Virus record (IMG/VR): IMGVR_UViG_3300045988_159823
Coordinates: 1-36,263 of that record
Length of the DNA stretch: 36,263 nucleotides
Source of the DNA: a virus
Taxonomy: Duplodnaviria; Heunggongvirae; Uroviricota; Caudoviricetes
Reading direction: 5' to 3' (one strand)
Shown here piece by piece: positions 2,476-36,031 of this stretch (position 1 is the stretch's first letter; the number at the start of each line of letters is the position of its first letter). Under the pieces are notes generated by a model, which had not been told where the DNA came from, searched no databases, and was given only the letters and a program-made list of their open reading frames with translations. The translations under genes and the position numbers were made by a program.

Positions 2476-3524
2476 GAAATCGTCCCCAGAACCGCCAGTT
2501 CATTTTTTGCAATGGAGATATTGTCCGCCGGTGCAAGCAATTGATGGCTGTATTCCCCGTTCGCACCGGAAATCGCTTCACTGATACGCGACACCTTCAG
2601 TTCTCCCTGCGGATAACCATCACGCAGCAGGAACGAACGCAACTCCGCAGTGATGGCTGCTCGTATTTCCGGTGTATCCGGCGTCACACGGATATGAAAA
2701 TCCACCGTATGTGCCACCGGCCTGAACACATACAAATCAGAGCCTGCCACCGGGGCCAGTGGCTCGATATGTTGTCTTGCCGCCGTTTCCGTTGATTCTT
2801 CCGGAATGGGATTAATCAGGTCACTGCTGGCAATCATCACACCGACAGTTCCCGTTCCCATCCAGTGACGGTATGTCCATGCGCGGGTAATGCCGGGCAC
2901 TTCTTTAGCCCAGACGACATAGTCCCCGTTAGCCCCGCCCTGCGGCGTCCAGTAATACCGCTCAATGACGCGGGCGCGCCACGTTTCCAGCTCTTCAGTA
3001 TCAAATCCGCCTGTCAGGGTGTCAGCCACACCGGAAGACGGCAGACCATTCACCGGCGTGACCAGGATTAATGCCGTACCGTCGTCAGCGTTACCGACCG
3101 CGCCTGCATTTGAGCAGGCGATCGGCACGCGCAGGACACCACCGGAGCTGGTTGCATCGGCAGTTGCAGTATACTGAACCAGGTCATCGCGCTGAATAAC
3201 ACTCCCGGCGGTCACCTTCAGGCCATCGCTGACACCTTCCCAGCGCATATACCCGCTGGCAGCCGTGGCCCCCTTGCGCGGACACCGTTTCATCGCAGCA
3301 TGTCGCGCCAGCCAGGACTCATCGCACAGGTCAGGCAGCATGTTCATTGCCAGATAATCGATGTACCCGTAAACCGTATGCAGCGCCGCCGCATACACCT
3401 TTGCCCGCACGTCTTCATCCATGCGCCGGAGCGTGTCGCTGACGTCCAGCCTGGCGAATAAATCGTTACGGAGCATACTGATATTTTCTGCCAGCGTCGG
3501 GCGCTGAAATTCACTGTCCGCCAT
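2466..3524 (-). CDS. baseplate J-like protein (Mu gp47-like)
   Basis: 352 aa; size and synteny in a Mu-type baseplate cluster. Confidence 0.7.
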
Positions 3525-4484: not shown

Positions 4485-5563
4485 CAGAACGGGTCCTCCT
4501 GTACTCTGGCTTTTTTCTTTTTCCGCGCGCCGGGGGCTTCGGGTTCAGGCAGATAAGCATCAGGTGGGCCGACACGGATTTCCGTCAGGGTGCCGTTCTG
4601 GTCCTGAGTAAACGTGACTTCCGAAACAAGCAGTTCGGTATTGTCGAAACCACAGACCGGATCGAAGACAATCACCCGCTGGTTGGGCTGCCACAGCGTA
4701 CCGTTACCCTGTCGCCAGCCCTGCACCACATAGGTGGTTTCATCCGTCCGCGCCGCCCGTTGTCGGGCTTCAAAGTCCGCACGGGCAATACAGCCTGCCC
4801 CCGTAGCCTGCCCTGTCTGCCTGATATACATCGGACGGTAACGGGCAATAAATGCGTCCTCTGTGCGGGCCCGCAGCGCGGTGGTGGTGGCCTCACCGAA
4901 ATCATCGTCGTTTCCGGCACGCTGCCCCGCCACCTGGTAAACTGAAAACCGCTCCCGGATACTCTTCTCCGTATCACAGGAAAGGATGTTTTCCCCAAGT
5001 ACCAGCGCGGTATGTGCCCGCGTTGAGCCAATACCGCCAATCACCAGCCTGCCGTGCGGGTCGTCATAAGCCAGCGCCTGCTGCTGACCGAGTATTTTGT
5101 TGATTACCTCAATCACCGTTTCACCGTGATCAGGCTGGACATCAGGAATAACACCCGACGGCGCACCGCTGTTCACCACCTCAATGCCGAAAGGCGCAGC
5201 AAGCGCCTGCGCAATCTGTACCAGCGATCGTCCGTTAAACTGTGTCGGTTCGGCTGCACAGTCAATCAGGTCAGCGGTCAGACTGCGTCCGGCAATACCG
5301 GTGCTGACCGAACGGGCATCGTAACGAACGGGCGTCGCCTCCACCCAGCCGGTGATCACCAGCTCATCACCAATCAGCACCTCCACTTTTGAACCGTTTT
5401 TAATGCGCGGCTGAAGCGTGGTGATACCCTCATCTCCCGGCCACTGGCGGGTGATCTCCACACTGAAATCCCGCGCCAGTCGTTCAACACCGGCACCGAT
5501 GCGCACCGATGTCCAGCCATTCCACTCCCGGCCATTTACCCGTAGCGTGACGTTATCGTTCAT
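4484..5563 (-). CDS. tail / baseplate hub protein (Mu gp44 / P2 gpD-like)
   Basis: 359 aa; ATGA start-stop overlap with the upstream gene; synteny. Confidence 0.6.
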   Translation of the reverse strand: MNDNVTLRVNGREWNGWTSVRIGAGVERLARDFSVEITRQWPGDEGITTLQPRIKNGSKVEVLIGDELVITGWVEATPVRYDARSVSTGIAGRSLTADLIDCAAEPTQFNGRSLVQIAQALAAPFGIEVVNSGAPSGVIPDVQPDHGETVIEVINKILGQQQALAYDDPHGRLVIGGIGSTRAHTALVLGENILSCDTEKSIRERFSVYQVAGQRAGNDDDFGEATTTALRARTEDAFIARYRPMYIRQTGQATGAGCIARADFEARQRAARTDETTYVVQGWRQGNGTLWQPNQRVIVFDPVCGFDNTELLVSEVTFTQDQNGTLTEIRVGPPDAYLPEPEAPGARKKKKARVQEDPF

Positions 5564-6888
5564 TGCACTGGCACCTTCAGAGGGATCACCGGCACAAAGC
5601 CGGGATGCGTAATGGCATTACGCCGGATAATGTCCGCGTCACGCGCCGCGTTATCAAACCAGGTCGCCGCCAGCACCAGCGCGGGTAAAACCTCATCCGG
5701 CGTGCGCTGAATGATCCGTGCAGACTGTTCAAGGCGCGTGTTGATATCCGCATTCAGATCTGCTTTCACCCGGCGCAGCGCCAGAAACAGCGCATCACTG
5801 GTTGTACGGGACAACTCCTTATCAATTGCCGTATTCAGTGTGTCGCGAATGTCAGTCAGTTCTTCCCACGTCGGCAGATCAACCGTGTTTTTCACCGCCG
5901 GTGCATTGTTCAGTGCCGGATGCGTAACGGAAGGCCAGCCGGTGCTCTGCGCGGGTGTTGTTGACTGCCCCACTGCGGCATTCTGCATCACCGCAGAAGT
6001 TGTTGGCGCAGGCAATCGGGTAACGGCATACGCCGCTTCGCTGATTGCAGTCGTACGAAGGGTGCTGGCAACCATGTTACGCTGCTGCGTCGCTGTGGCG
6101 GTGGTTTTACTGTCCGTTTTCCAGACGCCGCGCGGTTGCAAATCGCTGCCGAGGCTGACACCAGAAAGCGTTTTGATCATGGTGACCAGGTCGCTGGCGT
6201 TACCATAAAGGCGTTTCCCGGTACGCCACATTTTCTGCATCTGCTCAACGAAATTTTTGCCTGACGATGGTGGCGGCAGAAGTACCGAGATATCCCCCTG
6301 CAACAGCCTGGCAGCATCCGATACGGCAGAATCCACCACTTTCATCGCATCAGAAACATACCCAAGCATTGTGCTGACATTACCAACGACGTCGTTCTGC
6401 ACAAAATCCGCCACGCCATCGATACTGAAACCGCTGAAGCTGTCACTGATGCAGTTATCCAGTGCAGAACAGGATGACATCAGCGTCTGCGCCGTCGCCG
6501 CACCTGATGTGGGGTAAGAGAGTTCTCCTGCTTCGACAAACTTCAGGTCAAAGCGGACAATACGCCCTTCACTTTTCGATGTGCTGACCCGAACTTCCCC
6601 GTCAACACAGACTTTCAGCTCACCGTATGTCGGATGGACAAGCGTGCCGGGACCGGGTTTATTCAGCGCGTCAATCAGGCGATCGCGCTGGTCAAAGCAG
6701 TCATCTCCCACCACATAAGCCGTGATGGACGGGCGAAAAGTGATTTTCCCCAGGTCTTCGGTATAGGGTTTGTCGCGGTTCGGGTATTCATGTGTTTCCA
6801 CACGGCGACCGGTTCCCGCACTTTCTTCTTCAACCTTAAACGGCACACCTCGAAATGACGCATCCTGAAGCCTGTCTTTCCACGTCAT
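5560..6888 (-). CDS. DNA circularization protein (Mu N / gp43-like)
   Basis: N-terminus MTWKDRLQDASFRGVPFKVEEE... is Mu N-like; ATG at 6888 is preceded by GGAG; the track ORF extends to a TTG at 6936 inside the IS200 end region. Confidence 0.65.
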   Translation of the reverse strand: MTWKDRLQDASFRGVPFKVEEESAGTGRRVETHEYPNRDKPYTEDLGKITFRPSITAYVVGDDCFDQRDRLIDALNKPGPGTLVHPTYGELKVCVDGEVRVSTSKSEGRIVRFDLKFVEAGELSYPTSGAATAQTLMSSCSALDNCISDSFSGFSIDGVADFVQNDVVGNVSTMLGYVSDAMKVVDSAVSDAARLLQGDISVLLPPPSSGKNFVEQMQKMWRTGKRLYGNASDLVTMIKTLSGVSLGSDLQPRGVWKTDSKTTATATQQRNMVASTLRTTAISEAAYAVTRLPAPTTSAVMQNAAVGQSTTPAQSTGWPSVTHPALNNAPAVKNTVDLPTWEELTDIRDTLNTAIDKELSRTTSDALFLALRRVKADLNADINTRLEQSARIIQRTPDEVLPALVLAATWFDNAARDADIIRRNAITHPGFVPVIPLKVPVQ

Positions 6889-7009
6889 ATACACTCCGAA
6901 AATAAATATCCTCCGGCATAGCCGGAGGTTTTTCAAATGCGCCTATAAGGCTCTCTTACCAGCCGCGCCCTAACAGGCGCACACGATCTGACATTTGCAT
7001 CCAACTTCG

Positions 7010-7468
7010 TTACTTACGGCCCGTAAACGGGCTGCCCGGATAGGGAATCGATAGCTGCTCTCCCATTTTATCCTCTTCAAGCTGGTGCTTTATGTAATCC
7101 TGTATCTTCGCCGTGTTCTTACCCACTGTATCGACGTAGTACCCTCTGCACCAGAACTCCCTGTTCCTGTATTTGAATTTCAAATCACCAAACTGCTCGT
7201 AAAGCATCAGACTGCTTTTCCATTTCAGATATCCCATAAAGCCGGATACGCTCATTTTGGGCGGGATCTCCACAAGCATATGGATATGATCTGCACAGCA
7301 TTCAGCTTCCAGAATCCGTACACTTTTCCACTCACACAGCTTTCTCAAAATACTGCCTATTGCTCTACGCTTCTCTCTGTAGAACACCTGTCTTCGGTAT
7401 TTTGGCGCAAAAACTATGTGATATTTACAGTTCCATCGGGTGTGCGCTAAGCTCTTTTCGTTCCCCAT
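7010..7468 (-). CDS. tnpA: IS200 transposase TnpA (HUH / Y1 family)
   Basis: MGNEKSLAHTRWNCKYHIVFAPKYRRQVFY... and the HIHMLVEIPPKMSVS motif are characteristic of IS200 TnpA; start at internal Met 18 of the track ORF. Confidence 0.85.
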   Translation of the reverse strand: MGNEKSLAHTRWNCKYHIVFAPKYRRQVFYREKRRAIGSILRKLCEWKSVRILEAECCADHIHMLVEIPPKMSVSGFMGYLKWKSSLMLYEQFGDLKFKYRNREFWCRGYYVDTVGKNTAKIQDYIKHQLEEDKMGEQLSIPYPGSPFTGRK

Positions 7469-7611
7469 TGGGACCCCCTTTTGATTTCTTGTTTGACACT
7501 TGCAGTTGCCAGACCGCAAGGTGTTTTAACAAATCAAAAGGGGTTTTAATAACTGGCTCAAAGCTGAAAGCTTTCCGGACCCCCCAGCCTAGCTGGGGGT
7601 TTTCTGTGCAC

Positions 7612-7637
7612 AAAAAAGCCACCTATTAGAAGGTGGC
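7612..7637 (-). terminator. rho-independent terminator (hairpin GCCACCT/AGGTGGC plus T-run on the minus strand)
   Basis: 7-bp GC-rich stem followed by TTTTTT in the minus sense, 20 bp downstream of the 7658..8188 gene; may instead be the IS200 left-end palindrome. Confidence 0.5.
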
Positions 7638-7657
7638 CTTGTAATGAATTTTATTAA

Positions 7658-8188
7658 TTAGCGAGTCAGAAACAACGAATCTTTATACTTTTGCTGTTGT
7701 TCATTTAAATACTTAGCTGTTTCATCGCTGGCAAATGGAAATATTACCGTATTTTTAGGCATGGTAATTTCTTTTTTGTCCAGCGTCAGAGTAAACATAG
7801 GAACATACTGAGCAGAGTAACGCACCGCAGAAACGAGCTCTAGTTTAGACTCTTCAACAACACTTAAATTATCCAGGCTAACTTTCTCTTCATCTTTTTT
7901 CTTTGACGCATTTAAAGTTTTTATTACTTTATTTAATTTCTCCTGAAAATCCTCCTTAAAGTTTTCAGGATTGCCGTCGACAACAAGAATCTGTTCACCC
8001 TGATTATCTGGAAAAATAATCTTTGCACTTATCAATTTATTTTCTTTATAAACATCACCAAGTTTTATGGCTCCTCCAGATAACTGAATAATATGTTCAT
8101 CTTTAAAGGAGATGTTGCCAGAGATTATGAGAGATGAAAAAACAGCCGCTGCTCCAAGAATTACACTTGCTGTGATATAGCCTTTCAT
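7658..8188 (-). CDS. AT-rich cargo gene: secreted/periplasmic protein of unknown function
   Basis: N-terminal signal peptide MKGYITASVILGAAAVFSSLIISG with no lipobox Cys; Lys/Glu-rich mature part; AT-rich relative to flanking tail genes. Confidence 0.55.
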   Translation of the reverse strand: MKGYITASVILGAAAVFSSLIISGNISFKDEHIIQLSGGAIKLGDVYKENKLISAKIIFPDNQGEQILVVDGNPENFKEDFQEKLNKVIKTLNASKKKDEEKVSLDNLSVVEESKLELVSAVRYSAQYVPMFTLTLDKKEITMPKNTVIFPFASDETAKYLNEQQQKYKDSLFLTR

Positions 8189-8279
8189 TTTTCGCCTATT
8201 AACATTTTTCTAAATGTGCATTAATTCTATCACTCTATTTATGACTTACAACCAGCAATACCTGTGAGGGGAATCCTGG

Positions 8280-10112
8280 CTACCAAAATCGGGTATAGCC
8301 AACATCGTGATTTATATCAATGCCACTGGAACGTGTTTCCGTAACCCGCATACCTGGTGGCATATTCATAAATGAAACCTTGATCTCGCCATCAACTTTT
8401 GGCGCGATAGCTTTGTTAATCATGAAGGGATTCGGGCCTGTGGCATCGGAGGCGTTGTTTGACTGAGCCGGATCTACCGCCGGATAAGGTGTGTATCCCC
8501 GCGCCGGTATTCCCGTCCCATAAGCATCATAAGCACCCGCGCCCCACTGCGCAGAGTTAATGGCATCGACCGTGTCACCGGAACTGTCGGTAAACCATTC
8601 AATAATCGGCTTCAGCTTATCCCACATATCCTGAAACCACTTAACAACCGGTCCCCAGTTATTGATCACCATCCCCAGCGGCGACCAGGCAAAAACCTTC
8701 TTAAGAAGTTCCCAGCCAGTCTCAAAATAAGGACCAATGGTTTCCCAGAGTTTCTTAAAATAAGGTCCGACAACATCCCAGTTAGTGATAATTAATCCCG
8801 CAGCCAGGGCTATCGCCGTCGCAATCATGCCAATCGGCGTCATCGACATGATCCTGCTGACAATACTGATGGCACTGCCCACGCCCATCAATCCCAGTTT
8901 CAGAATCGCAAGACCGGCAGCAAGCCCGACGACGCCGCGAATAACCCGGGGATTTTCATCCGCAAACTTAGTGAATTTTTCCCCCAACTCCCCCAGCCAT
9001 TGCGTGATATTTTTAGCGTCACCAGAAAATGCGCCGCCAATAGCTGCAAGACCGTTAGTTGCGGTCCCCGTCATTGCCTCCCACAGGTTGGACAGCGTAC
9101 CAAGCTGTGCCTGAACACGTTTATTCAGGCTGGCCTGTTTATTCATCTTCTGCTGGATCTGATCGTAACCATCCTTTCCTTTATCGATCAGAGCATTGAC
9201 CACCTGAAGGGTTTCGGCATCATCACCAAATATTGCCTTAAGTACACCTGTTCGCTTAACGTCGGTCAGTTTTCGCAGCTTTGCCAGTTGCTTAAACATG
9301 TTATCAAGACCGCCAAAACTCCCTTTGCCGTCAGTAAAATCGAGCTGCACTCCGAGTTTCTGGCGGGCCATGACTTTATTGACGTCCCTGATTTTCTTAA
9401 CGCTTAATCCGGACTGGATAACTTTTCGCAGGGCATTACCTGCCGACTCCCCGTTCATCCCCATCTGATCCATCATGACGCTGATGGGGGCAAGGCTCTG
9501 TGCAGCCTGAAGACCGTCCTTGTTCACCATCTTCAGAACAGAACTGGTTTTAGTGAAGAAGGACAACATGTTGGTATCGTCAACGCCCAGATAAAACGCC
9601 TTCTGGATAGTGTCGAACAGCCCCATCATGTCTTCTGACGCCGTTCCGGTAGCATCCTGCATCTTTGCAGCAAACTCAGCAGCCGCTTCCGGTGTTTTTT
9701 TCAGTTGTACCGCAAGATAAGCTGTCGCTTTACCCACACCGCCAAGAATGTTTTCTGCCGGGATCCCCTGACGCACCAGCATCTGCATCATGTTCTGGAA
9801 ATCAGCCGTTGTACCGGGTAGCTGGTTACCCAGGCCAATAGCCAGTTTATTGATGTCCTGAAAGCTCTTTCCAACCTCGCCATTCGCATCCATCATGGCG
9901 ACTTTCAGCCCGGTGGCGGCGTTTTCCTGATCGGCATAAGATTTCAGGGAAAGCGTCAGACCCGCTGCCAGTCCGCCACCAAGCGCCAGCCCACCCTGTG
10001 ACGCTTCTTCCGCCTGGCGTTTAAATCCCCGGATTTTCTTTTGCATTTTCGACAGCGCGGGAGAAAGCCTGTCGACACCGGTGATCAACGCCTTAAGCTC
10101 AAATTCAGCCAT
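8280..10112 (-). CDS. tail tape measure protein
   Basis: 610 aa; Ala/Gly-rich helical N-terminal half and hydrophobic segments; lies between the chaperone and baseplate genes. Confidence 0.8.
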   Translation of the reverse strand: MAEFELKALITGVDRLSPALSKMQKKIRGFKRQAEEASQGGLALGGGLAAGLTLSLKSYADQENAATGLKVAMMDANGEVGKSFQDINKLAIGLGNQLPGTTADFQNMMQMLVRQGIPAENILGGVGKATAYLAVQLKKTPEAAAEFAAKMQDATGTASEDMMGLFDTIQKAFYLGVDDTNMLSFFTKTSSVLKMVNKDGLQAAQSLAPISVMMDQMGMNGESAGNALRKVIQSGLSVKKIRDVNKVMARQKLGVQLDFTDGKGSFGGLDNMFKQLAKLRKLTDVKRTGVLKAIFGDDAETLQVVNALIDKGKDGYDQIQQKMNKQASLNKRVQAQLGTLSNLWEAMTGTATNGLAAIGGAFSGDAKNITQWLGELGEKFTKFADENPRVIRGVVGLAAGLAILKLGLMGVGSAISIVSRIMSMTPIGMIATAIALAAGLIITNWDVVGPYFKKLWETIGPYFETGWELLKKVFAWSPLGMVINNWGPVVKWFQDMWDKLKPIIEWFTDSSGDTVDAINSAQWGAGAYDAYGTGIPARGYTPYPAVDPAQSNNASDATGPNPFMINKAIAPKVDGEIKVSFMNMPPGMRVTETRSSGIDINHDVGYTRFW

Positions 10113-22863: not shown

Positions 22864-23610
22864 ATGCGACATAATTTTTCTAAAGACACTATAAAAAAAT
22901 TAGCAGAGCGGGCAGCATTCATTTGTTCAAACCCTTCATGCCCTAGATTGACCATTGGCCCATCAATTGATGGCAATAAATCAATCAAGACAGGAGTTGC
23001 TGCTCACATATGTGCAGCATCTCCTGATGGCCCACGCTATGACATGTCACAATCAGAAACAGAAAGGAAGTCAATTAACAATGGCATATGGCTGTGTGCT
23101 ACTTGTTCTGTATTAATAGATAAGAATCAGGGGCTAGACTATCCGGCACCTGTATTAAGAAAATGGAAAAAAGATCATGAAAGCCTTATAAGCTCCTGTC
23201 TTGAAGGTTCGATTAATATTACCTTCGATGCTTTGAAATATATTCAACAGCATGATGAAAGAAATCTGGCAAAAAAGATTATAAATGAATTGGATGATAA
23301 AGGGGCTTTGTTCGTAGAATATCATCTTGAAAACCCCTGTTTTGTTGCCGAATCACTCAAAGAGTTAAGAACATGTTTGACCTCTTTGCTTTCTCAAATC
23401 CCAGATGAATCACCTCTATTTATCGTTTGCAAGTCAATTCGAGAAGCATGCCGTTATTATATGAACAACACTTCTAAAGACGCAGGGATTAAAGAGTTAG
23501 AATTTTCGTTGGGAGCTGTCAGAAAAATCGTAGGTATCAACGTTAAAAGAATATCAGAAACCTACGGGGTTAAACCTAGCCCACAATTATCTACCATAAT
23601 GCCAGATTAA
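22864..23610 (+). CDS. AT-rich cargo gene: HNH-nuclease-like N-terminal domain plus uncharacterized C-terminal domain
   Basis: CSNPSC ... AAHICAASPDGPRY ... NGIWLCATCS arrangement resembles an HNH zinc-finger nuclease core; encoded antisense to the late operon between Q and the holin. Confidence 0.6.
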   Translation: MRHNFSKDTIKKLAERAAFICSNPSCPRLTIGPSIDGNKSIKTGVAAHICAASPDGPRYDMSQSETERKSINNGIWLCATCSVLIDKNQGLDYPAPVLRKWKKDHESLISSCLEGSINITFDALKYIQQHDERNLAKKIINELDDKGALFVEYHLENPCFVAESLKELRTCLTSLLSQIPDESPLFIVCKSIREACRYYMNNTSKDAGIKELEFSLGAVRKIVGINVKRISETYGVKPSPQLSTIMPD

Positions 23611-23660: not shown

Positions 23661-24023
23661 TTACTCCATTTCTAAACGAATATCCAGCATCGAGAGACAA
23701 CCATCTATAAACCCTTCAGCCAACTGTATCTCTATACGTATCAATTTCTCATCTTTTTTGTATGCTTTTGCTATCTTCCTTTTCGAGATGCCATACAGGT
23801 AATGAGCCACAATCAGAGAGTGCTCATACGGTTTTCTCTTCTTAAGAAGAGCAAGACAACCTTCAATAATTAATGCATCACTATCTGAACAAGCCTGACG
23901 TGTTTTGCTTGTATAGGGAAGAAGCCCTTTAAACCCAGCAGCTATAGGAGAATAGTCTACTCCAGAACTATCACTCGCCGCCCATGCTCCCCAACGATCC
24001 AGAACCATCTGAATATCACGCAT
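23661..24023 (-). CDS. late antiterminator Q (QuuD / phage 82 Q-like)
   Basis: MRDIQMVLDRWGAWAA ... LDIRLEME closely resembles QuuD of the DLP12 prophage; start taken at internal Met 6. Confidence 0.8.
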   Translation of the reverse strand: MRDIQMVLDRWGAWAASDSSGVDYSPIAAGFKGLLPYTSKTRQACSDSDALIIEGCLALLKKRKPYEHSLIVAHYLYGISKRKIAKAYKKDEKLIRIEIQLAEGFIDGCLSMLDIRLEME

Positions 24024-24040
24024 CAACTTTCTCCGCAAAA

Positions 24041-31978: not shown

Positions 31979-32224
31979 ATGCTTCAAATGCTGACACTTG
32001 AGGAATGGGCTGCGGAAAAATTTAGGAGTAATCCTCCAAGTGTGTCCACATTACGTCGTTATGCTAAGCAGAATTTATTTTGTCCACCGGCAATGAAACA
32101 AGGTCGACTATGGCGAGTGCGTGAGGATGCAGAGTTAGTTGGGGAGTTAGTTACTCCAGTAATAAAGAAAAGTGATTCTATTATTCTACAAAGGATTTTA
32201 GGTAATGGCAGCCAGACCACGTAA
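31979..32224 (+). CDS. xis: excisionase (lambda Xis-like)
   Basis: LTLEEWAAEKF ... STLRRYAKQNLFCPPAMKQGRLWRVRED parallels lambda Xis; overlaps the int start; exact start ambiguous (31964, 31979 or 31988). Confidence 0.7.
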   Translation: MLQMLTLEEWAAEKFRSNPPSVSTLRRYAKQNLFCPPAMKQGRLWRVREDAELVGELVTPVIKKSDSIILQRILGNGSQTT

Positions 32225-33335
32225 AAATAATGTTTCAGTCCCGAACTTGTATCCGCTTTATAGCAGAAAAGTAAATAAAGTCTATTGGCGATATAAACAT
32301 CCAGTGACCGGGAAGTTTCATTCTTTAGGCACAAACGAAGCTGAAGCCATTGCTATTGCCACTGAGGCAAATTCACGCCTGGCTGAGCAAAGAACCCGGC
32401 AGATTCTGGCTATCAGTGACAGGATCGCAACCAGCAAAGGAAAAGCAATCACAACGTCAACCTGGTTAGATCGCTATCAAGCAATCCAGGATGACAGACT
32501 GGAAAGTGGCGATATAAAGCTCAACACCTATAAACAGAAAGCCAAACCAGTATCCTTGCTCAGGGAACGAGCAGGAATGAAATTAATTTCATCAGTTGAT
32601 GCAAGGGATATAGCACAATTGCTTGACGAGTATATCACTGCCGGGCAACCGAGGATGGCGCAAGTAGTCCGCTCCGTTCTAATTGATGTATTCAAGGAGG
32701 CACAACACTATGGGGAAGTCCCTCCGGGCTATAATCCTGCACTGGCAACCAAACAACCCAGAAGAAAAATTACCCGACAACGGTTAAATCTTGAAGAGTG
32801 GCAAAAAATCTTTGATATTGCAGATGCCAGTCATCGTTATATGGGGAATGCCATGCTGTTAGCACTGGTTACCGGCCAACGGTTAGGTGATATCTCACGT
32901 ATGAAATTTAGCGATATTTGGGATGATCATCTTCACGTCATCCAGGAAAAAACCGGGAGCAAAATCGCCATCCCGCTTTCTCTGCGCCTCAATGCGATTA
33001 ACTGGAGTTTGCGCGATGTAGTAGCCCGTTGCCGTGACTATGCTGTCAGCCCATACCTTGTACATTTTTTTCGTACTACTTCACAGGCTGAACGCGGCGC
33101 ACAGGTTAAAGCCAATACCTTGACTATGAATTTCAGTAAAGCAAGAGATTTAGCAGGAATTGATTGGGGGAAAGGTTCACCTGCCACATTCCATGAACAA
33201 CGGTCTTTATCTGAACGTCTGTACAAAGAACAGGGGATCGATACTAGAAAGCTACTGGGCCATAAAACCCAGCAGCAAACAGATCGCTACCATGATGACC
33301 GAGGGAAAGATTGGAGTAAAATAGCTATAATTTGA
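32205..33335 (+). CDS. int: tyrosine integrase, lambda Int family
   Basis: Collinear with lambda Int including ...TFHEQRSLSERLYKEQ...LLGHKTQQQTDRYHDDRGKDWSKI (catalytic R-H-R-Y region). Confidence 0.9.
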   Translation: MAARPRKNNVSVPNLYPLYSRKVNKVYWRYKHPVTGKFHSLGTNEAEAIAIATEANSRLAEQRTRQILAISDRIATSKGKAITTSTWLDRYQAIQDDRLESGDIKLNTYKQKAKPVSLLRERAGMKLISSVDARDIAQLLDEYITAGQPRMAQVVRSVLIDVFKEAQHYGEVPPGYNPALATKQPRRKITRQRLNLEEWQKIFDIADASHRYMGNAMLLALVTGQRLGDISRMKFSDIWDDHLHVIQEKTGSKIAIPLSLRLNAINWSLRDVVARCRDYAVSPYLVHFFRTTSQAERGAQVKANTLTMNFSKARDLAGIDWGKGSPATFHEQRSLSERLYKEQGIDTRKLLGHKTQQQTDRYHDDRGKDWSKIAII

Positions 33336-34185
33336 CTCTTGTAGGATCCATATCATCAGGAATAGAAATGCTATCACAAAAAAAGATTACTTCTGGCCCT
33401 TGGTACCTAGATTGAGCACTATAGCTGATACCGTACTCAATTTTTCTAAGACCAGTGTACATGTTGTTTATTTCAACAGTATTATCGTAAGATACAATCC
33501 ATGGATGCTTTGAATTAGATTTTATAATATTAGCAATTTCGACATGATCATCATGACTATAATGGTTTTGATACAAGCCCTTTCCTTTAACATAATATGG
33601 AGGGTCAAGATAAAGCAATGTTTTTAATGGGAATCCAGTTACAGTATTTTGCAAGAATGATTTAGCATCTTGGTTATAGATACAAATATCAGATTTACGG
33701 TCTGCTATTACCTTAATACGGTTTACTAAATCAACCTTATTAAATCGAGCATCTATTTTCCATTTTCCATTTTGTTCCTTACCACCAATTACACCACCTA
33801 ACAAAATTCCTGACCGATTTGTTCGATTAAGGAAAAACGTAGCGAATCCAACTTCCAATGAGGAATAATCACATTGATTACTAATGATATTTTTATTCTT
33901 ATACCATTCATCCATATTCACAGGGGTTTTTTCAATTAATTGGCAAAACTGATCAGTTTCTTCTAGAATTGACCGCCAAAAACAAAAAATGGCGTTATTA
34001 AGATCGTTTAAATGTATACGTGATGCTTTCCCAGACAAAAGTAAATTAATGGCTACTCCAGCACCACCAGCATACGGCTCAACATATTCGCAACCATCTA
34101 AACCATTGATCATAATGATCTTTGATAGATAGTTAGTTAATTTACCTTTACCACCAGGATACCGTAATGGGGTGCTGAATCTCAT
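33325..34185 (-). CDS. N6-adenine DNA methyltransferase, Dam (D12) family
   Basis: RYPGGK, VEPYAGGAGVAINLL (SAM-binding) and LYLDPPYY (catalytic DPPY) motifs in Dam-like order; AT-rich; 3' end overlaps the int 3' end by 11 bp. Confidence 0.8.
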   Translation of the reverse strand: MRFSTPLRYPGGKGKLTNYLSKIIMINGLDGCEYVEPYAGGAGVAINLLLSGKASRIHLNDLNNAIFCFWRSILEETDQFCQLIEKTPVNMDEWYKNKNIISNQCDYSSLEVGFATFFLNRTNRSGILLGGVIGGKEQNGKWKIDARFNKVDLVNRIKVIADRKSDICIYNQDAKSFLQNTVTGFPLKTLLYLDPPYYVKGKGLYQNHYSHDDHVEIANIIKSNSKHPWIVSYDNTVEINNMYTGLRKIEYGISYSAQSRYQGPEVIFFCDSISIPDDMDPTRVKL

Positions 34186-34254
34186 ATCTTATACTCAACG
34201 ATCAAAAACTACTGTATATAATACCACATTATCTGGTTTCAGGATACCATAGAA

Positions 34255-35964
34255 TCACTTAGTCACAACGCTCTTAACTCTTTCAGGATTAAGGCCAAAT
34301 TCTTCCCCTATAACAAAGCGCAATGCTTCGATAAGAGTATCGTTAAACTTGTCTACCAATATTTTATTATCCTCAGCCCACTTTCTATATGGATTGTATT
34401 TTACACCGCCACATTTTATCAGTTCTTGTAATGTTTTCTCCTGTATAAATTTTTTGAATAACTCTCTTATCCTTGAACCATCAAGTTTATCTTTATTAAC
34501 TTCTTTTATTTTTTCTTTTAATTTAATTTTTTGCTCACTAATATTAAGAGCAGTAATTATGGGGTTGGACTTTTCGAAAAAATAGTCTTTAGTATAATGT
34601 AGTGGGTTGTTCTTCCAGAAATCATCACTGGCATCTAGGTTAAATAGATATTCGAAAATTATTTGATCCGGTGGTAATATTCCCGGTAATTTAACCACAT
34701 TCGCATGCTTGACATTCTCCACGTCAGCATCTAAAACAATTATTGCAGACTTATAAAAACCAGGAACTTTTTTGTTTAAAAGTTGAATATAGTTTTTGCA
34801 TCCAAGAGTTATGTCCTTATTTAAATTAAGTAATCTTCTTATATCTCTGCGTGTTACAACAGAACAAAATAAATCATAATTTTCCTTATCCTCAAAGAAA
34901 ACATTAGTCTTCCGAATAGACTCCTGCTTATTCAACTGTAATGTTTCATTGCAAAGATCTAGCCTAATATCTCCCCATGAATAATCATTCTTTACTTCTA
35001 ACTTACCGTAAGTATTTGTTAGATATATCACCTTATAGTTTTTGCTGTCTCTTTTCGTATATTCATATACTGAATTTATAATCTCTGGTGAATGAGTGGT
35101 AAATACCACCTGTAAATCTAACTTCTTAGTGATAGATGATAATTTCTCAATTAAACGTCTCTGTGCTGCAGGAAACAATCCAGCATCAATTTCATCTATC
35201 AATAGAATCCCACCATGATAATCTGGATATTCAGCCTGAAGTTTTTTAAATGAAAAAATAGCTTGTAGTATTTGTCCTAAATTATCCTCGCCAACAGAAA
35301 CAGATTGATGATCGTATTTTTCACCACTAACAACCATCGAGTCTATAGTACCATTTGTTTTTGTTAGATTATTGGCATTTCGTACACCTAAAATATATGA
35401 ACTTAATTGAACAAAGTCTTGTCTATTTAAATTCATAAATTCATCAATATCAGACACAGTGTATTTTTGACGATCTGGCACGGGTGTAAGGCGCTTCATA
35501 CTCAAGTAAATTAGCGGATGTGTAACCTTTCTGCTATCACTAGCCCCATTAGTAGTAGTATTATTACGAACCGTTGCTCGAGGGTATGAATGTTCACTCC
35601 TTAAATATAGACCGAGTTTTAATTGTTCCAACTCCTTCTGTTCAGCTCCATCATATATAATGACATCAACATCCATAGAACTTGGCGTATCAAACTTTTC
35701 TGAGAGCCGGAAATGCTCTCTAAACTGAGATGAGAAAGGTTTTCCAGCAAGAGTCTTATATTTTCTCAGATCTACCTTTGGCTCTTGAGTATAATCGGTC
35801 TCAAAATTAAACATTTGGGCAGCAATGCCCAACACCGTCGATTTTGACGTACCATTTTTGCCACAAATTGCCGTTATACGTTCACCAAAATGGATCGTAC
35901 AGTCATTCAAGCCTCGAAAGCTCTTTATTTTTATTTCTTTTAGCTTGGTTATTTTTTGGGACAT
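34255..35964 (-). CDS. OLD-family-like ABC ATPase with a probable C-terminal TOPRIM nuclease domain
   Basis: Walker A GKNGTSKST, Walker B ILLIDEIDAG, H-loop TTHSPE; C-terminal FFEDKENYD plus IIVLDADVE look like a TOPRIM Glu and DxD; start at internal Met with AGGA spacing. Confidence 0.7.
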   Translation of the reverse strand: MSQKITKLKEIKIKSFRGLNDCTIHFGERITAICGKNGTSKSTVLGIAAQMFNFETDYTQEPKVDLRKYKTLAGKPFSSQFREHFRLSEKFDTPSSMDVDVIIYDGAEQKELEQLKLGLYLRSEHSYPRATVRNNTTTNGASDSRKVTHPLIYLSMKRLTPVPDRQKYTVSDIDEFMNLNRQDFVQLSSYILGVRNANNLTKTNGTIDSMVVSGEKYDHQSVSVGEDNLGQILQAIFSFKKLQAEYPDYHGGILLIDEIDAGLFPAAQRRLIEKLSSITKKLDLQVVFTTHSPEIINSVYEYTKRDSKNYKVIYLTNTYGKLEVKNDYSWGDIRLDLCNETLQLNKQESIRKTNVFFEDKENYDLFCSVVTRRDIRRLLNLNKDITLGCKNYIQLLNKKVPGFYKSAIIVLDADVENVKHANVVKLPGILPPDQIIFEYLFNLDASDDFWKNNPLHYTKDYFFEKSNPIITALNISEQKIKLKEKIKEVNKDKLDGSRIRELFKKFIQEKTLQELIKCGGVKYNPYRKWAEDNKILVDKFNDTLIEALRFVIGEEFGLNPERVKSVVTK

Positions 35965-36031
35965 ATTTTCCTTCGTCCTCATTTTGATTAAAAAAACAGA
36001 TAAACGGAAAAATGCTACCATGTAGAGAAAG

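Follow-up and report, generated by a model that had tools for sequence, protein, structure and literature searches.

A recent IS200C copy beside an older, uncharacterised moron in the tail operon of an SfV-like Escherichia coli prophage

IS200, which represents the single open reading frame (ORF) group of the IS200/IS605 family, is a single-gene insertion sequence (IS) without passenger genes. It measures about 710 bp, encodes one 152-aa Y1 HUH transposase, carries subterminal hairpins at both ends and lacks both terminal inverted repeats and a target duplication. Its left-end hairpin is a bidirectional Rho-independent terminator, and its 5' untranslated region (5'UTR) holds a stem in which the Shine-Dalgarno (SD) sequence is sequestered, together with the art200 small RNA locus (PMC4513863). 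A second described system is gene 15 of phage HK97, a moron (the term is used as defined in PMC3594210) that adjoins the tape measure gene in the tail operon and encodes an inner-membrane superinfection-exclusion protein blocking DNA entry (PMC3594210). Both systems bear on a stretch of 36,263 nt of caudoviricete DNA (IMG/VR record IMGVR_UViG_3300045988_159823, positions 1 to 36,263), hereafter called the window, in which an IS200 copy and a gene for a 176-aa protein lie between the tail tape measure gene and a gene resembling Mu N. An initial annotation, made from the sequence alone, had described the two as an IS200 copy with an adjacent secreted-protein cargo gene. Our analysis separates a strain-private IS from an older accessory gene and corrects the cargo idea, a result whose significance is mostly one of bookkeeping: the IS is an ordinary IS200C, and the gene is an uncharacterised moron that is neither IS cargo nor a structural tail gene. 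To this structural and evolutionary account, comprising the older moron, the younger complete IS200C and the present state of the IS copy, we assign a probability of roughly 0.8. The two elements occupy the following positions.

6901-7611, minus strand: complete IS200C, 711 bp, with left end GTGCAC at 7611 and right end ...GGAGGATATTTATT at 6901

7658-8188, minus strand: moron gene encoding the 176-aa protein WP_000679482.1, with an N-terminal signal or membrane-anchor segment; function unassigned

The distribution of the two elements demonstrates that they do not travel together. Among 5,426 complete E. coli genomes, the full 2.4-kb configuration of IS and gene was found in that of strain L65 alone, and many E. 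coli genomes carry the same locus without the IS at 98-99.8% identity. The moron segment (7618-8279) is present in 179 genomes, in 174 of them at a coverage of at least 80%, nearly always in single copy and seated between genes annotated as "tape measure" and "DNA circularization". IS200C, in turn, was detected in 2,064 genomes at many unrelated sites that lack the 176-aa gene. Homologues of the 176-aa protein with about 41-58% identity occupy the same slot, without IS200, in prophages of Leclercia and Edwardsiella and on an unassigned contig from a metagenome. Because the gene is widespread without IS200 and the IS stands at this site in a single genome, we read the gene as an old resident of the slot and the IS as a recent, lineage-private arrival, the two being independent insertions.

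The cargo idea, by which the secreted-protein gene would have been moved by or with IS200 as a single composite insertion, does draw on real features of the locus. The stop codon of the gene and the left end of the IS are separated by 46 nt alone, and gene and IS together constitute the extra DNA relative to phage SfV. The composite is nevertheless already refuted by the distribution data, and we give it practically no weight: the gene stands without IS200 in about 175 E. coli genomes, in the prophages of Leclercia and Edwardsiella and in a prophage remnant of Lelliottia, and the 2,064 genomes with IS200C at unrelated sites show the converse. The element is moreover a single-gene IS with defined ends at 6901 and 7611, and alignment to an empty site demonstrates that the IS alone was inserted.

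That alignment was made with the IS-free prophage of strain NWU_3, in which the empty site reads CCGAAAATAAAAAAGCCACC; in the window the two halves of this sequence are parted by the IS and nothing else. The comparison places the IS junctions to within 3 nt and reveals no target duplication. Four further IS200C copies at core-genome sites were compared with K-12 and represent clean gains of 711 or 712 bp, likewise without duplication, in the creD/arcA, ynaJ/uspE, yebQ/htpX and pheP/ybdG gaps between convergent genes. All four of these K-12 empty sites consist of a terminator-like hairpin and a T-tract, and in each the IS lies directly after the T-tract.

To describe this target choice, 28 distinct IS200C sites were assembled: that of the window, those of seven annotated copies and others on IMG/VR prophage contigs retrieved with the left-end sequence. 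The dinucleotide TT lies directly 5' of the left end in all 28. Of these sites, 17 have TTTTT as the flanking pentamer and 6 have TTATT, the rest showing a one-base variant. A strong hairpin followed by a T-run (-12 kcal/mol or stronger, the final 7 nt including 4 T or more) was present in 89% of the sites, compared with 0.9% of 3,000 45-mers drawn at random from these contigs. IS200C itself has a 3'-terminal TTATT that is similar to the target pentamer, and the sequence GAAAA(A), complementary to the T-rich target, precedes both IS hairpins. In IS608, each hairpin is preceded on its 5' side by a "guide" segment that base-pairs with the site of cleavage or the target (PMC5934647); by analogy, the IS200C segments would act as guides in the same manner. 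A 2026 survey found that sequences resembling terminators are enriched just upstream of ISs, above all for IS200/IS605 (PMC13548323), and the present dataset provides a quantitative illustration in which IS200C lands directly behind intrinsic terminators, at TT(T/A)TT after the hairpin. A preference for terminator T-tracts explains why IS200C is so frequently found in harmless intergenic positions. It also accounts for the adjacency of IS and moron with no functional link between them, because the moron terminator supplied the IS200C landing site. Morons that bring terminators into phage operons thereby furnish landing pads for IS200C.

The IS itself contains all expected parts.

7010-7468, minus strand: tnpA, intact, encoding the 152-aa Y1 HUH transposase with HUH motif H61-I-H63 and catalytic Tyr125

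7581-7599, minus strand: IS200 left-end hairpin (IS nt 13-31), 8-bp stem, -17 kcal/mol; transposase recognition hairpin

7478-7601, minus strand: IS200 5'UTR region with the SD-sequestering stem and the art200/STnc490 small RNA locus (Rfam RF01405)

6910-6928, both strands: IS200 right-end subterminal hairpin, 8 bp, -15 to -17 kcal/mol, z about -3.4 to -3.9; terminator-like

The initial annotation had regarded the element as complete, and alignment bears this out: seven other IS200C copies are collinear with it over 711 bp, from GTGCAC... to ...GGAGGATATTTATT, at 99.6% identity, with tnpA intact and both hairpins in place. The element is in fact already labelled IS200C in L65 by the Prokaryotic Genome Annotation Pipeline (PGAP). 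Analysis of the transposase returned Pfam Y1_Tnp at 1.2e-37 (profile positions 2-121 of 121) and the NCBIfam equivalog transpos_IS200 at 3.4e-42 (143.6 bits against a cutoff of 55). Homologues in the PDB, including IS608 TnpA and Sulfolobus transposases, were matched with E values of 1e-18 to 1e-22. In the alignment with IS608 TnpA, H61-I-H63 falls on the HUH motif and Y125 on the tyrosine of the conserved YIENQ segment, which we take to be the catalytic Tyr127 of that enzyme. The 5'UTR region matches the STnc490 family (RF01405) over its full length of 1-124 with 142.1 bits (gathering score 56) and an E value of 2.2e-30. Three other Rfam matches, to Ysr202, Phe_leader and Polynucleobacter-1, all fall under the gathering score and were rejected as real family members; Ysr202 and Phe_leader match terminator hairpins, and Polynucleobacter-1 is weakly matched within the Mu N-like gene.

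The hairpins required a partial correction. Two had been assigned to the flanks of the IS. The one at 6910-6928 is indeed the IS200 right end and is conserved in all IS200C copies compared. The other, at 7612-7637, is ruled out as part of IS200 by the empty-site alignment, since it occurs in IS-free prophages, and belongs instead to the predicted terminator of the moron. The left-end hairpin of the IS at 7581-7599 had been overlooked; it corresponds to the terminator described for IS200 as "nts 12-34" (PMC4513863). With these parts assigned, the element agrees with IS200 in its size of about 710 bp, its single 152-aa Y1 HUH transposase, its subterminal hairpins at both ends, its left-end terminator, its SD-sequestering 5'UTR and its art200/STnc490 locus. 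It agrees also in lacking a target duplication and terminal inverted repeats, the ends GTGCAC... and ...TTTATT not being inverted repeats of one another.

In sequence, the window copy differs from the other IS200C copies by three private substitutions relative to the consensus. One (IS nt 32 T>G, window 7580) lies just 3' of the left-end hairpin stem, and another (IS nt 558, window 7054) is synonymous. The third (IS nt 390 G>T) changes TnpA at G83W (codon 7222-7220), within a conserved K-G-K/R-S motif. Position 83 is glycine in all seven other IS200C copies and in the solved homologues of the four alignments inspected, and the substitution is possibly disabling. IS200 is found at one place only on the L65 chromosome. 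Given G83W and this sole copy, the IS may now be immobile.

The older of the two insertions is flanked by its own candidate control signals.

7612-7639, minus strand: predicted intrinsic terminator of the moron, hairpin and T6, -14 to -16 kcal/mol, z = -3.7; the T-tract served as target of IS200C

8224-8251, minus strand: promoter-like site, TTGTAA, 16-nt spacer, TG-n-TAGAAT, in the AT-rich 91-nt spacer that follows the tape measure gene

The terminator occurs in empty-site prophages as GGCCACCTTCTAATAGGTGGCTTTTTTATTTT. The promoter-like site, the sole sigma-70-like match in 6700-8500, is a putative promoter of the moron. The gene had been noted as AT-rich with a signal peptide; it is AT-rich, and its product has a putative signal or membrane-anchor segment at the N-terminus. 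Its GC content is 34.7%, compared with 51.1% for the tape measure gene and 55.4% for the Mu N-like gene. Residues 4-22 of its product form a 19-residue hydrophobic segment with a Kyte-Doolittle mean of 2.06, and the protein is rich in lysine (11.9%) and glutamate (8.0%). It contains no cysteine and consequently no lipobox. The hydrophobic N-terminus is conserved across 62 aligned family members.

Database comparison assigned the 176-aa protein to phrog_5485, "unknown function", at 7e-108 (PHROGs). It has no match in Pfam, NCBIfam or PADLOC, and none of the 62 family members has one in Pfam; a fold search of the 176-aa protein likewise returned no match, and a literature search with the protein accessions and the PHROG number returned no papers. 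Among 1.84 billion representatives, the family accounts for 78 clusters at 50% identity, whose proteins all measure about 170-200 aa. The motifs G-x-V-x-L-G-x-V-Y-x-E and Y-x-S-E are conserved, and the invariant positions (G, L, Y and E) include no conserved catalytic-type residues. A profile search of genome contigs with a narrow family alignment returned one locus, in Edwardsiella. Where genomic contexts could be read, the family appears restricted to the Mu-type tail modules of enterobacterial (Enterobacterales) prophages.

The slot occupied by the gene is bounded by two tail genes, as had initially been described, and Pfam and PGAP assignments of these neighbours confirm it.

8280-10112, minus strand: tail tape measure gene, Pfam PhageMin_Tail 1.1e-26, PGAP; upstream neighbour of the 176-aa gene

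5560-6888, minus strand: Mu N-like DNA circularization/tail gene, Pfam DNA_circ_N 7.1e-34, PGAP start at 6888; downstream neighbour

In phage SfV (NC_003444), the same flanking homologues (tape measure orf14 and Mu N-like orf15) stand in the same order with the same N-like start region. The SfV orf14-orf15 junction is a 45-nt spacer without a gene, whereas the window holds 1,391 nt here (6889-8279), filled by the moron and IS200C. Among the E. coli genomes, the slot is uninterrupted in about 865, contains the 176-aa gene in about 175 and contains a different gene, of the type found in Escherichia phage SKA5, in about 84. The SKA5 gene (2629-3141 of the phage locus) is likewise AT-rich, encodes a 170-aa Sec-signal protein (WQM42337.1) and is followed by its own terminator in the same slot. 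The two proteins are nonetheless unrelated (BLASTP E = 2.9), the SKA5 protein having cysteines and a classical cleavable signal peptide. The slot carries alternative genes for predicted envelope-targeted proteins in about a quarter of its E. coli carriers, and these genes are candidates for phage exclusion or lysogenic conversion.

By composition and position, we therefore classify the 176-aa gene as a moron that is optional rather than structural: it adds DNA between genes that are direct neighbours in SfV and in about 865 E. coli genomes, its composition deviates from that of its surroundings, and it has its own predicted terminator. The same features recur outside E. coli. Slot homologues in other genera have 35-39% GC between flanks of 47-60% and are terminator-flanked in three loci checked (Edwardsiella not among them), with equivalent terminators in Leclercia. 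They also diverge faster, at 41-55% identity compared with mostly 68-88% for the sheath, tube, N and P proteins. In Lelliottia amnigena, beside icd, a remnant (L007 7809-8560) consists of the last ~31 tape measure codons, a 174-aa homologue and the terminator, and looks like a moron that outlived its phage. Because gene and terminator survive there after loss of the prophage, their retention suggests a host-side function independent of the virion.

These relatives also permit a judgement on whether the protein could be a structural or assembly component of the tail, fixed after the tape measure gene, rather than an accessory product of the lysogen. Its constant position without rearrangement in the prophages of three or more genera (Escherichia, Leclercia and Edwardsiella), its co-orientation with the tail operon and its abutment on the N-like gene in Edwardsiella would all be expected of such a component. 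The initial annotation had indeed named conservation as a structural component in related phages as a point that would count against an inserted gene, and the same place in related prophages is what we find; a structural role fails, in contrast, on the functional phage SfV and the roughly 865 E. coli genomes that lack the gene, and on the roughly 84 that carry an unrelated one. A signal or anchor sequence would be unexpected in a virion protein assembled in the cytoplasm, the strong compositional deviation and the separate terminator do not fit an integral tail gene, the gene alone survives prophage decay in Lelliottia, and it diverges faster than most flanking tail proteins. We consider a structural role very improbable.

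Two side observations concern moron-bearing relatives of the prophage. The 37,667-bp circular 'plasmid unnamed3' of E. coli CX04 (NZ_CP081716.1) is a whole moron-bearing SfV-like phage genome with many apparent frameshifts, and the strain also has a chromosomal prophage copy. The circle is probably an excised phage assembled as a plasmid, and hints that IS-free members of the group still excise. Separately, Leclercia-type prophages and the metagenome contig (L003, L004, L006 and L144) carry two extra genes of about 503-507 aa and 94 aa, with no Pfam match, between the DNA circularization and baseplate hub genes; both are absent from the window and from locus L142.

The proposed origin of the moron is the placement of an older cassette, consisting of the promoter-like site, the 176-aa ORF and the intrinsic terminator, into the tape measure/N junction. 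Its product would carry an N-terminal Sec signal or membrane anchor and a domain of ~150 residues, alpha/beta in prediction, facing the periplasm. The repressed prophage would express the moron, and the product would act at the cell envelope. The closest parallel is HK97 gene 15 (Juhala et al. 2000; Cumby et al. 2012, reviewed in PMC3594210), which shares the foreign composition, the own terminator, a putative promoter, the place in the tail operon adjoining the tape measure gene, absence from close relatives and predicted envelope targeting through an N-terminal hydrophobic segment. The moron of the window differs in its place on the downstream rather than the upstream side of the tape measure gene and in belonging to a myovirus (Mu-type) tail module. 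Its product is without sequence or fold similarity to HK97 gp15/YebO, is larger and has a predicted folded alpha/beta domain. No sequence or fold homology was found to the characterised exclusion proteins HK97 gp15, P22 SieA, T4 Imm/Sp and Cor/Llp.

On the strength of the HK97 analogy, we favour superinfection exclusion, in which the moron protein would block the entry of incoming phage DNA in the manner of gp15, or else another role at the envelope; the assignment is weak and tentative. A wider proposal, that the family is a new periplasm-facing class of superinfection-exclusion or anti-injection proteins and that the tape measure/N junction is a hot-spot for swapping envelope defences, strikes us as rather speculative and unlikely. 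If it were true, the SKA5-type protein would be a second allele of a defence slot and the Lelliottia gene a case of host domestication. The same envelope targeting and moron features are also compatible with another lysogenic-conversion function that is not directed against phages, such as that of a periplasmic or secreted factor acting on colonisation, stress tolerance, colicin or antibiotic entry, or virulence. Morons take many such roles, as exemplified by Lom, Bor and SopE (PMC3594210); the SKA5-type allele is likewise a Sec-signal protein with no assigned role, and the 176-aa protein has no PADLOC match. Nothing speaks specifically against such a function. The family lacks conserved catalytic-type residues among its invariant G, L, Y and E positions and is confined to Enterobacterales prophage tail modules where contexts were read. 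We regard such a function as possible and would not place it higher. Of the points raised by the locus, the function of the moron family and of its polymorphic slot is the one of some value.

The consequences of the IS for the operon follow from its position. The younger IS200C would have transposed as single-stranded DNA by the peel-and-paste route of its Y1 HUH transposase and landed directly 3' of the T-tract of the moron terminator, with no coding sequence damaged. The IS has the same orientation as the operon, and 3 nt separate its right end from the downstream SD sequence of the N-like gene (GGAG at 6897-6894); SfV orf15 homology stops at 6898. The N-like gene starts at ATG 6888 according to PGAP and hence does not overlap the IS, a longer ORF from the upstream TTG at 6936 being an artefact of mechanical ORF calling. 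The initial statement that no reading frame was destroyed is upheld by this start outside the IS. The terminator-like hairpins that had been suspected of affecting the downstream baseplate genes are also present, as judged from fold energies and z-scores. The IS adds its left-end terminator and its right-end hairpin between the late promoter and about nine downstream tail genes (N-like, baseplate and tail-fibre genes). The prophage additionally encodes the following regulator.

23661-24026, minus strand: Q-family late antiterminator gene, Pfam Phage_antitermQ 5.8e-52; PGAP "antiterminator Q family protein" (same prophage)

In lytic growth, the Q antiterminator would ease polarity, as it must already carry RNA polymerase through the moron terminator, and by analogy with lambda it probably reduces the effect of the IS. 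A harsher outcome would be that IS200 is strongly polar, that transcription of the N-like, baseplate and fibre genes is cut, and that a tail-defective, "grounded" prophage is heading to decay. IS200 was discovered as a polar insertion (hisD984), and its left-end hairpin terminates transcription in both directions (PMC4513863). On the sense strand, the right-end hairpin and the AUAUUUAUUUU after it resemble a terminator, and the insertion is private to one lineage, in which L65 later acquired an IS1 in the integrase gene together with frameshifted genes. Other features argue against strong polarity. The moron terminator is already in the operon of about 175 genomes, and late transcription must be terminator-resistant because IS-free prophages carry that terminator at the same place. 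The prophage encodes Q, the U-tail of the left-end hairpin on the sense strand is poor (GUCC in this copy), and the SD sequence and start codon of the N-like gene are intact. We consider a grounded prophage a doubtful outcome.

Several points weigh against the account of an older moron and a younger, complete IS200C in a tolerant operon. Read-through of the IS200 terminators by means of Q is extrapolated from lambda biology. Because no isolated phage in INPHARED carries the 176-aa family (tblastn, 50,697 phage records), we can only infer that the moron is compatible with productive growth. In Edwardsiella, the N-like gene begins 14 nt after the homologue with no obvious terminator, an arrangement more integrated into the operon than that of a textbook moron. 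The promoter is a single consensus match, with 1 found where 3.3 were expected in shuffles. The AlphaFold 2 (AF2) model of the 176-aa protein is of moderate quality (mean predicted local distance difference test, pLDDT, 63.8), and its N-terminus is unmodelled. Lastly, the net gain at the window site, measured against the closest empty sites, is 708 bp rather than 711 bp, because the terminal ATT of the IS coincides with an ATT of the target, which leaves a 3-nt discrepancy at the right junction. At this junction (6896-6906), the expected sequence is ...TTTATT followed by ATTTTCGG and the observed sequence is ...TTTATTTTCGG, so that one ATT is missing or shared between IS and target.

The prophage is SfV-like and integrated at icd, with lambdoid early genes, the Q antiterminator, an HK97-type head and a Mu-type contractile tail. 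Its late genes are all on the minus strand, with the tape measure gene, the 176-aa ORF, IS200, the Mu N-like gene and the baseplate genes in that order. Bases 6400-8800 are a 100% match to the chromosome of E. coli strain L65 (NZ_CP034738.1), and window positions 1-32257 share 99.994% identity with it. The difference from L65 lies in the integrase gene.

32205-33335, plus strand: integrase gene, intact, 376 aa; Pfam Arm-DNA-bind_1 and Phage_integrase

The IS1A that splits this gene in L65 is missing from the window, and the 9 bp at 32249-32257 are duplicated on either side of IS1A in L65. The missing IS1A rules out that the window is byte-identical to the L65 RefSeq sequence; the window belongs to the L65 lineage but derives from a sister genome or assembly. 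For the same reason, the argument that the prophage was already dead through int::IS1 does not apply to the window, where the integrase gene is intact.

Two further minus-strand genes are located between that for the integrase and icd, one for a Dam-like D12 methyltransferase (33325-34185) and one for an AAA_15/AAA_21 ATPase resembling those of defence systems (34255-36021); together (33325-36021) they look like cargo of the prophage end. A 248-aa ORF without a Pfam match lies on the plus strand at 22864-23610, opposed to the late operon and between the Q antiterminator and holin genes, an interval that is the classical lambdoid moron position.

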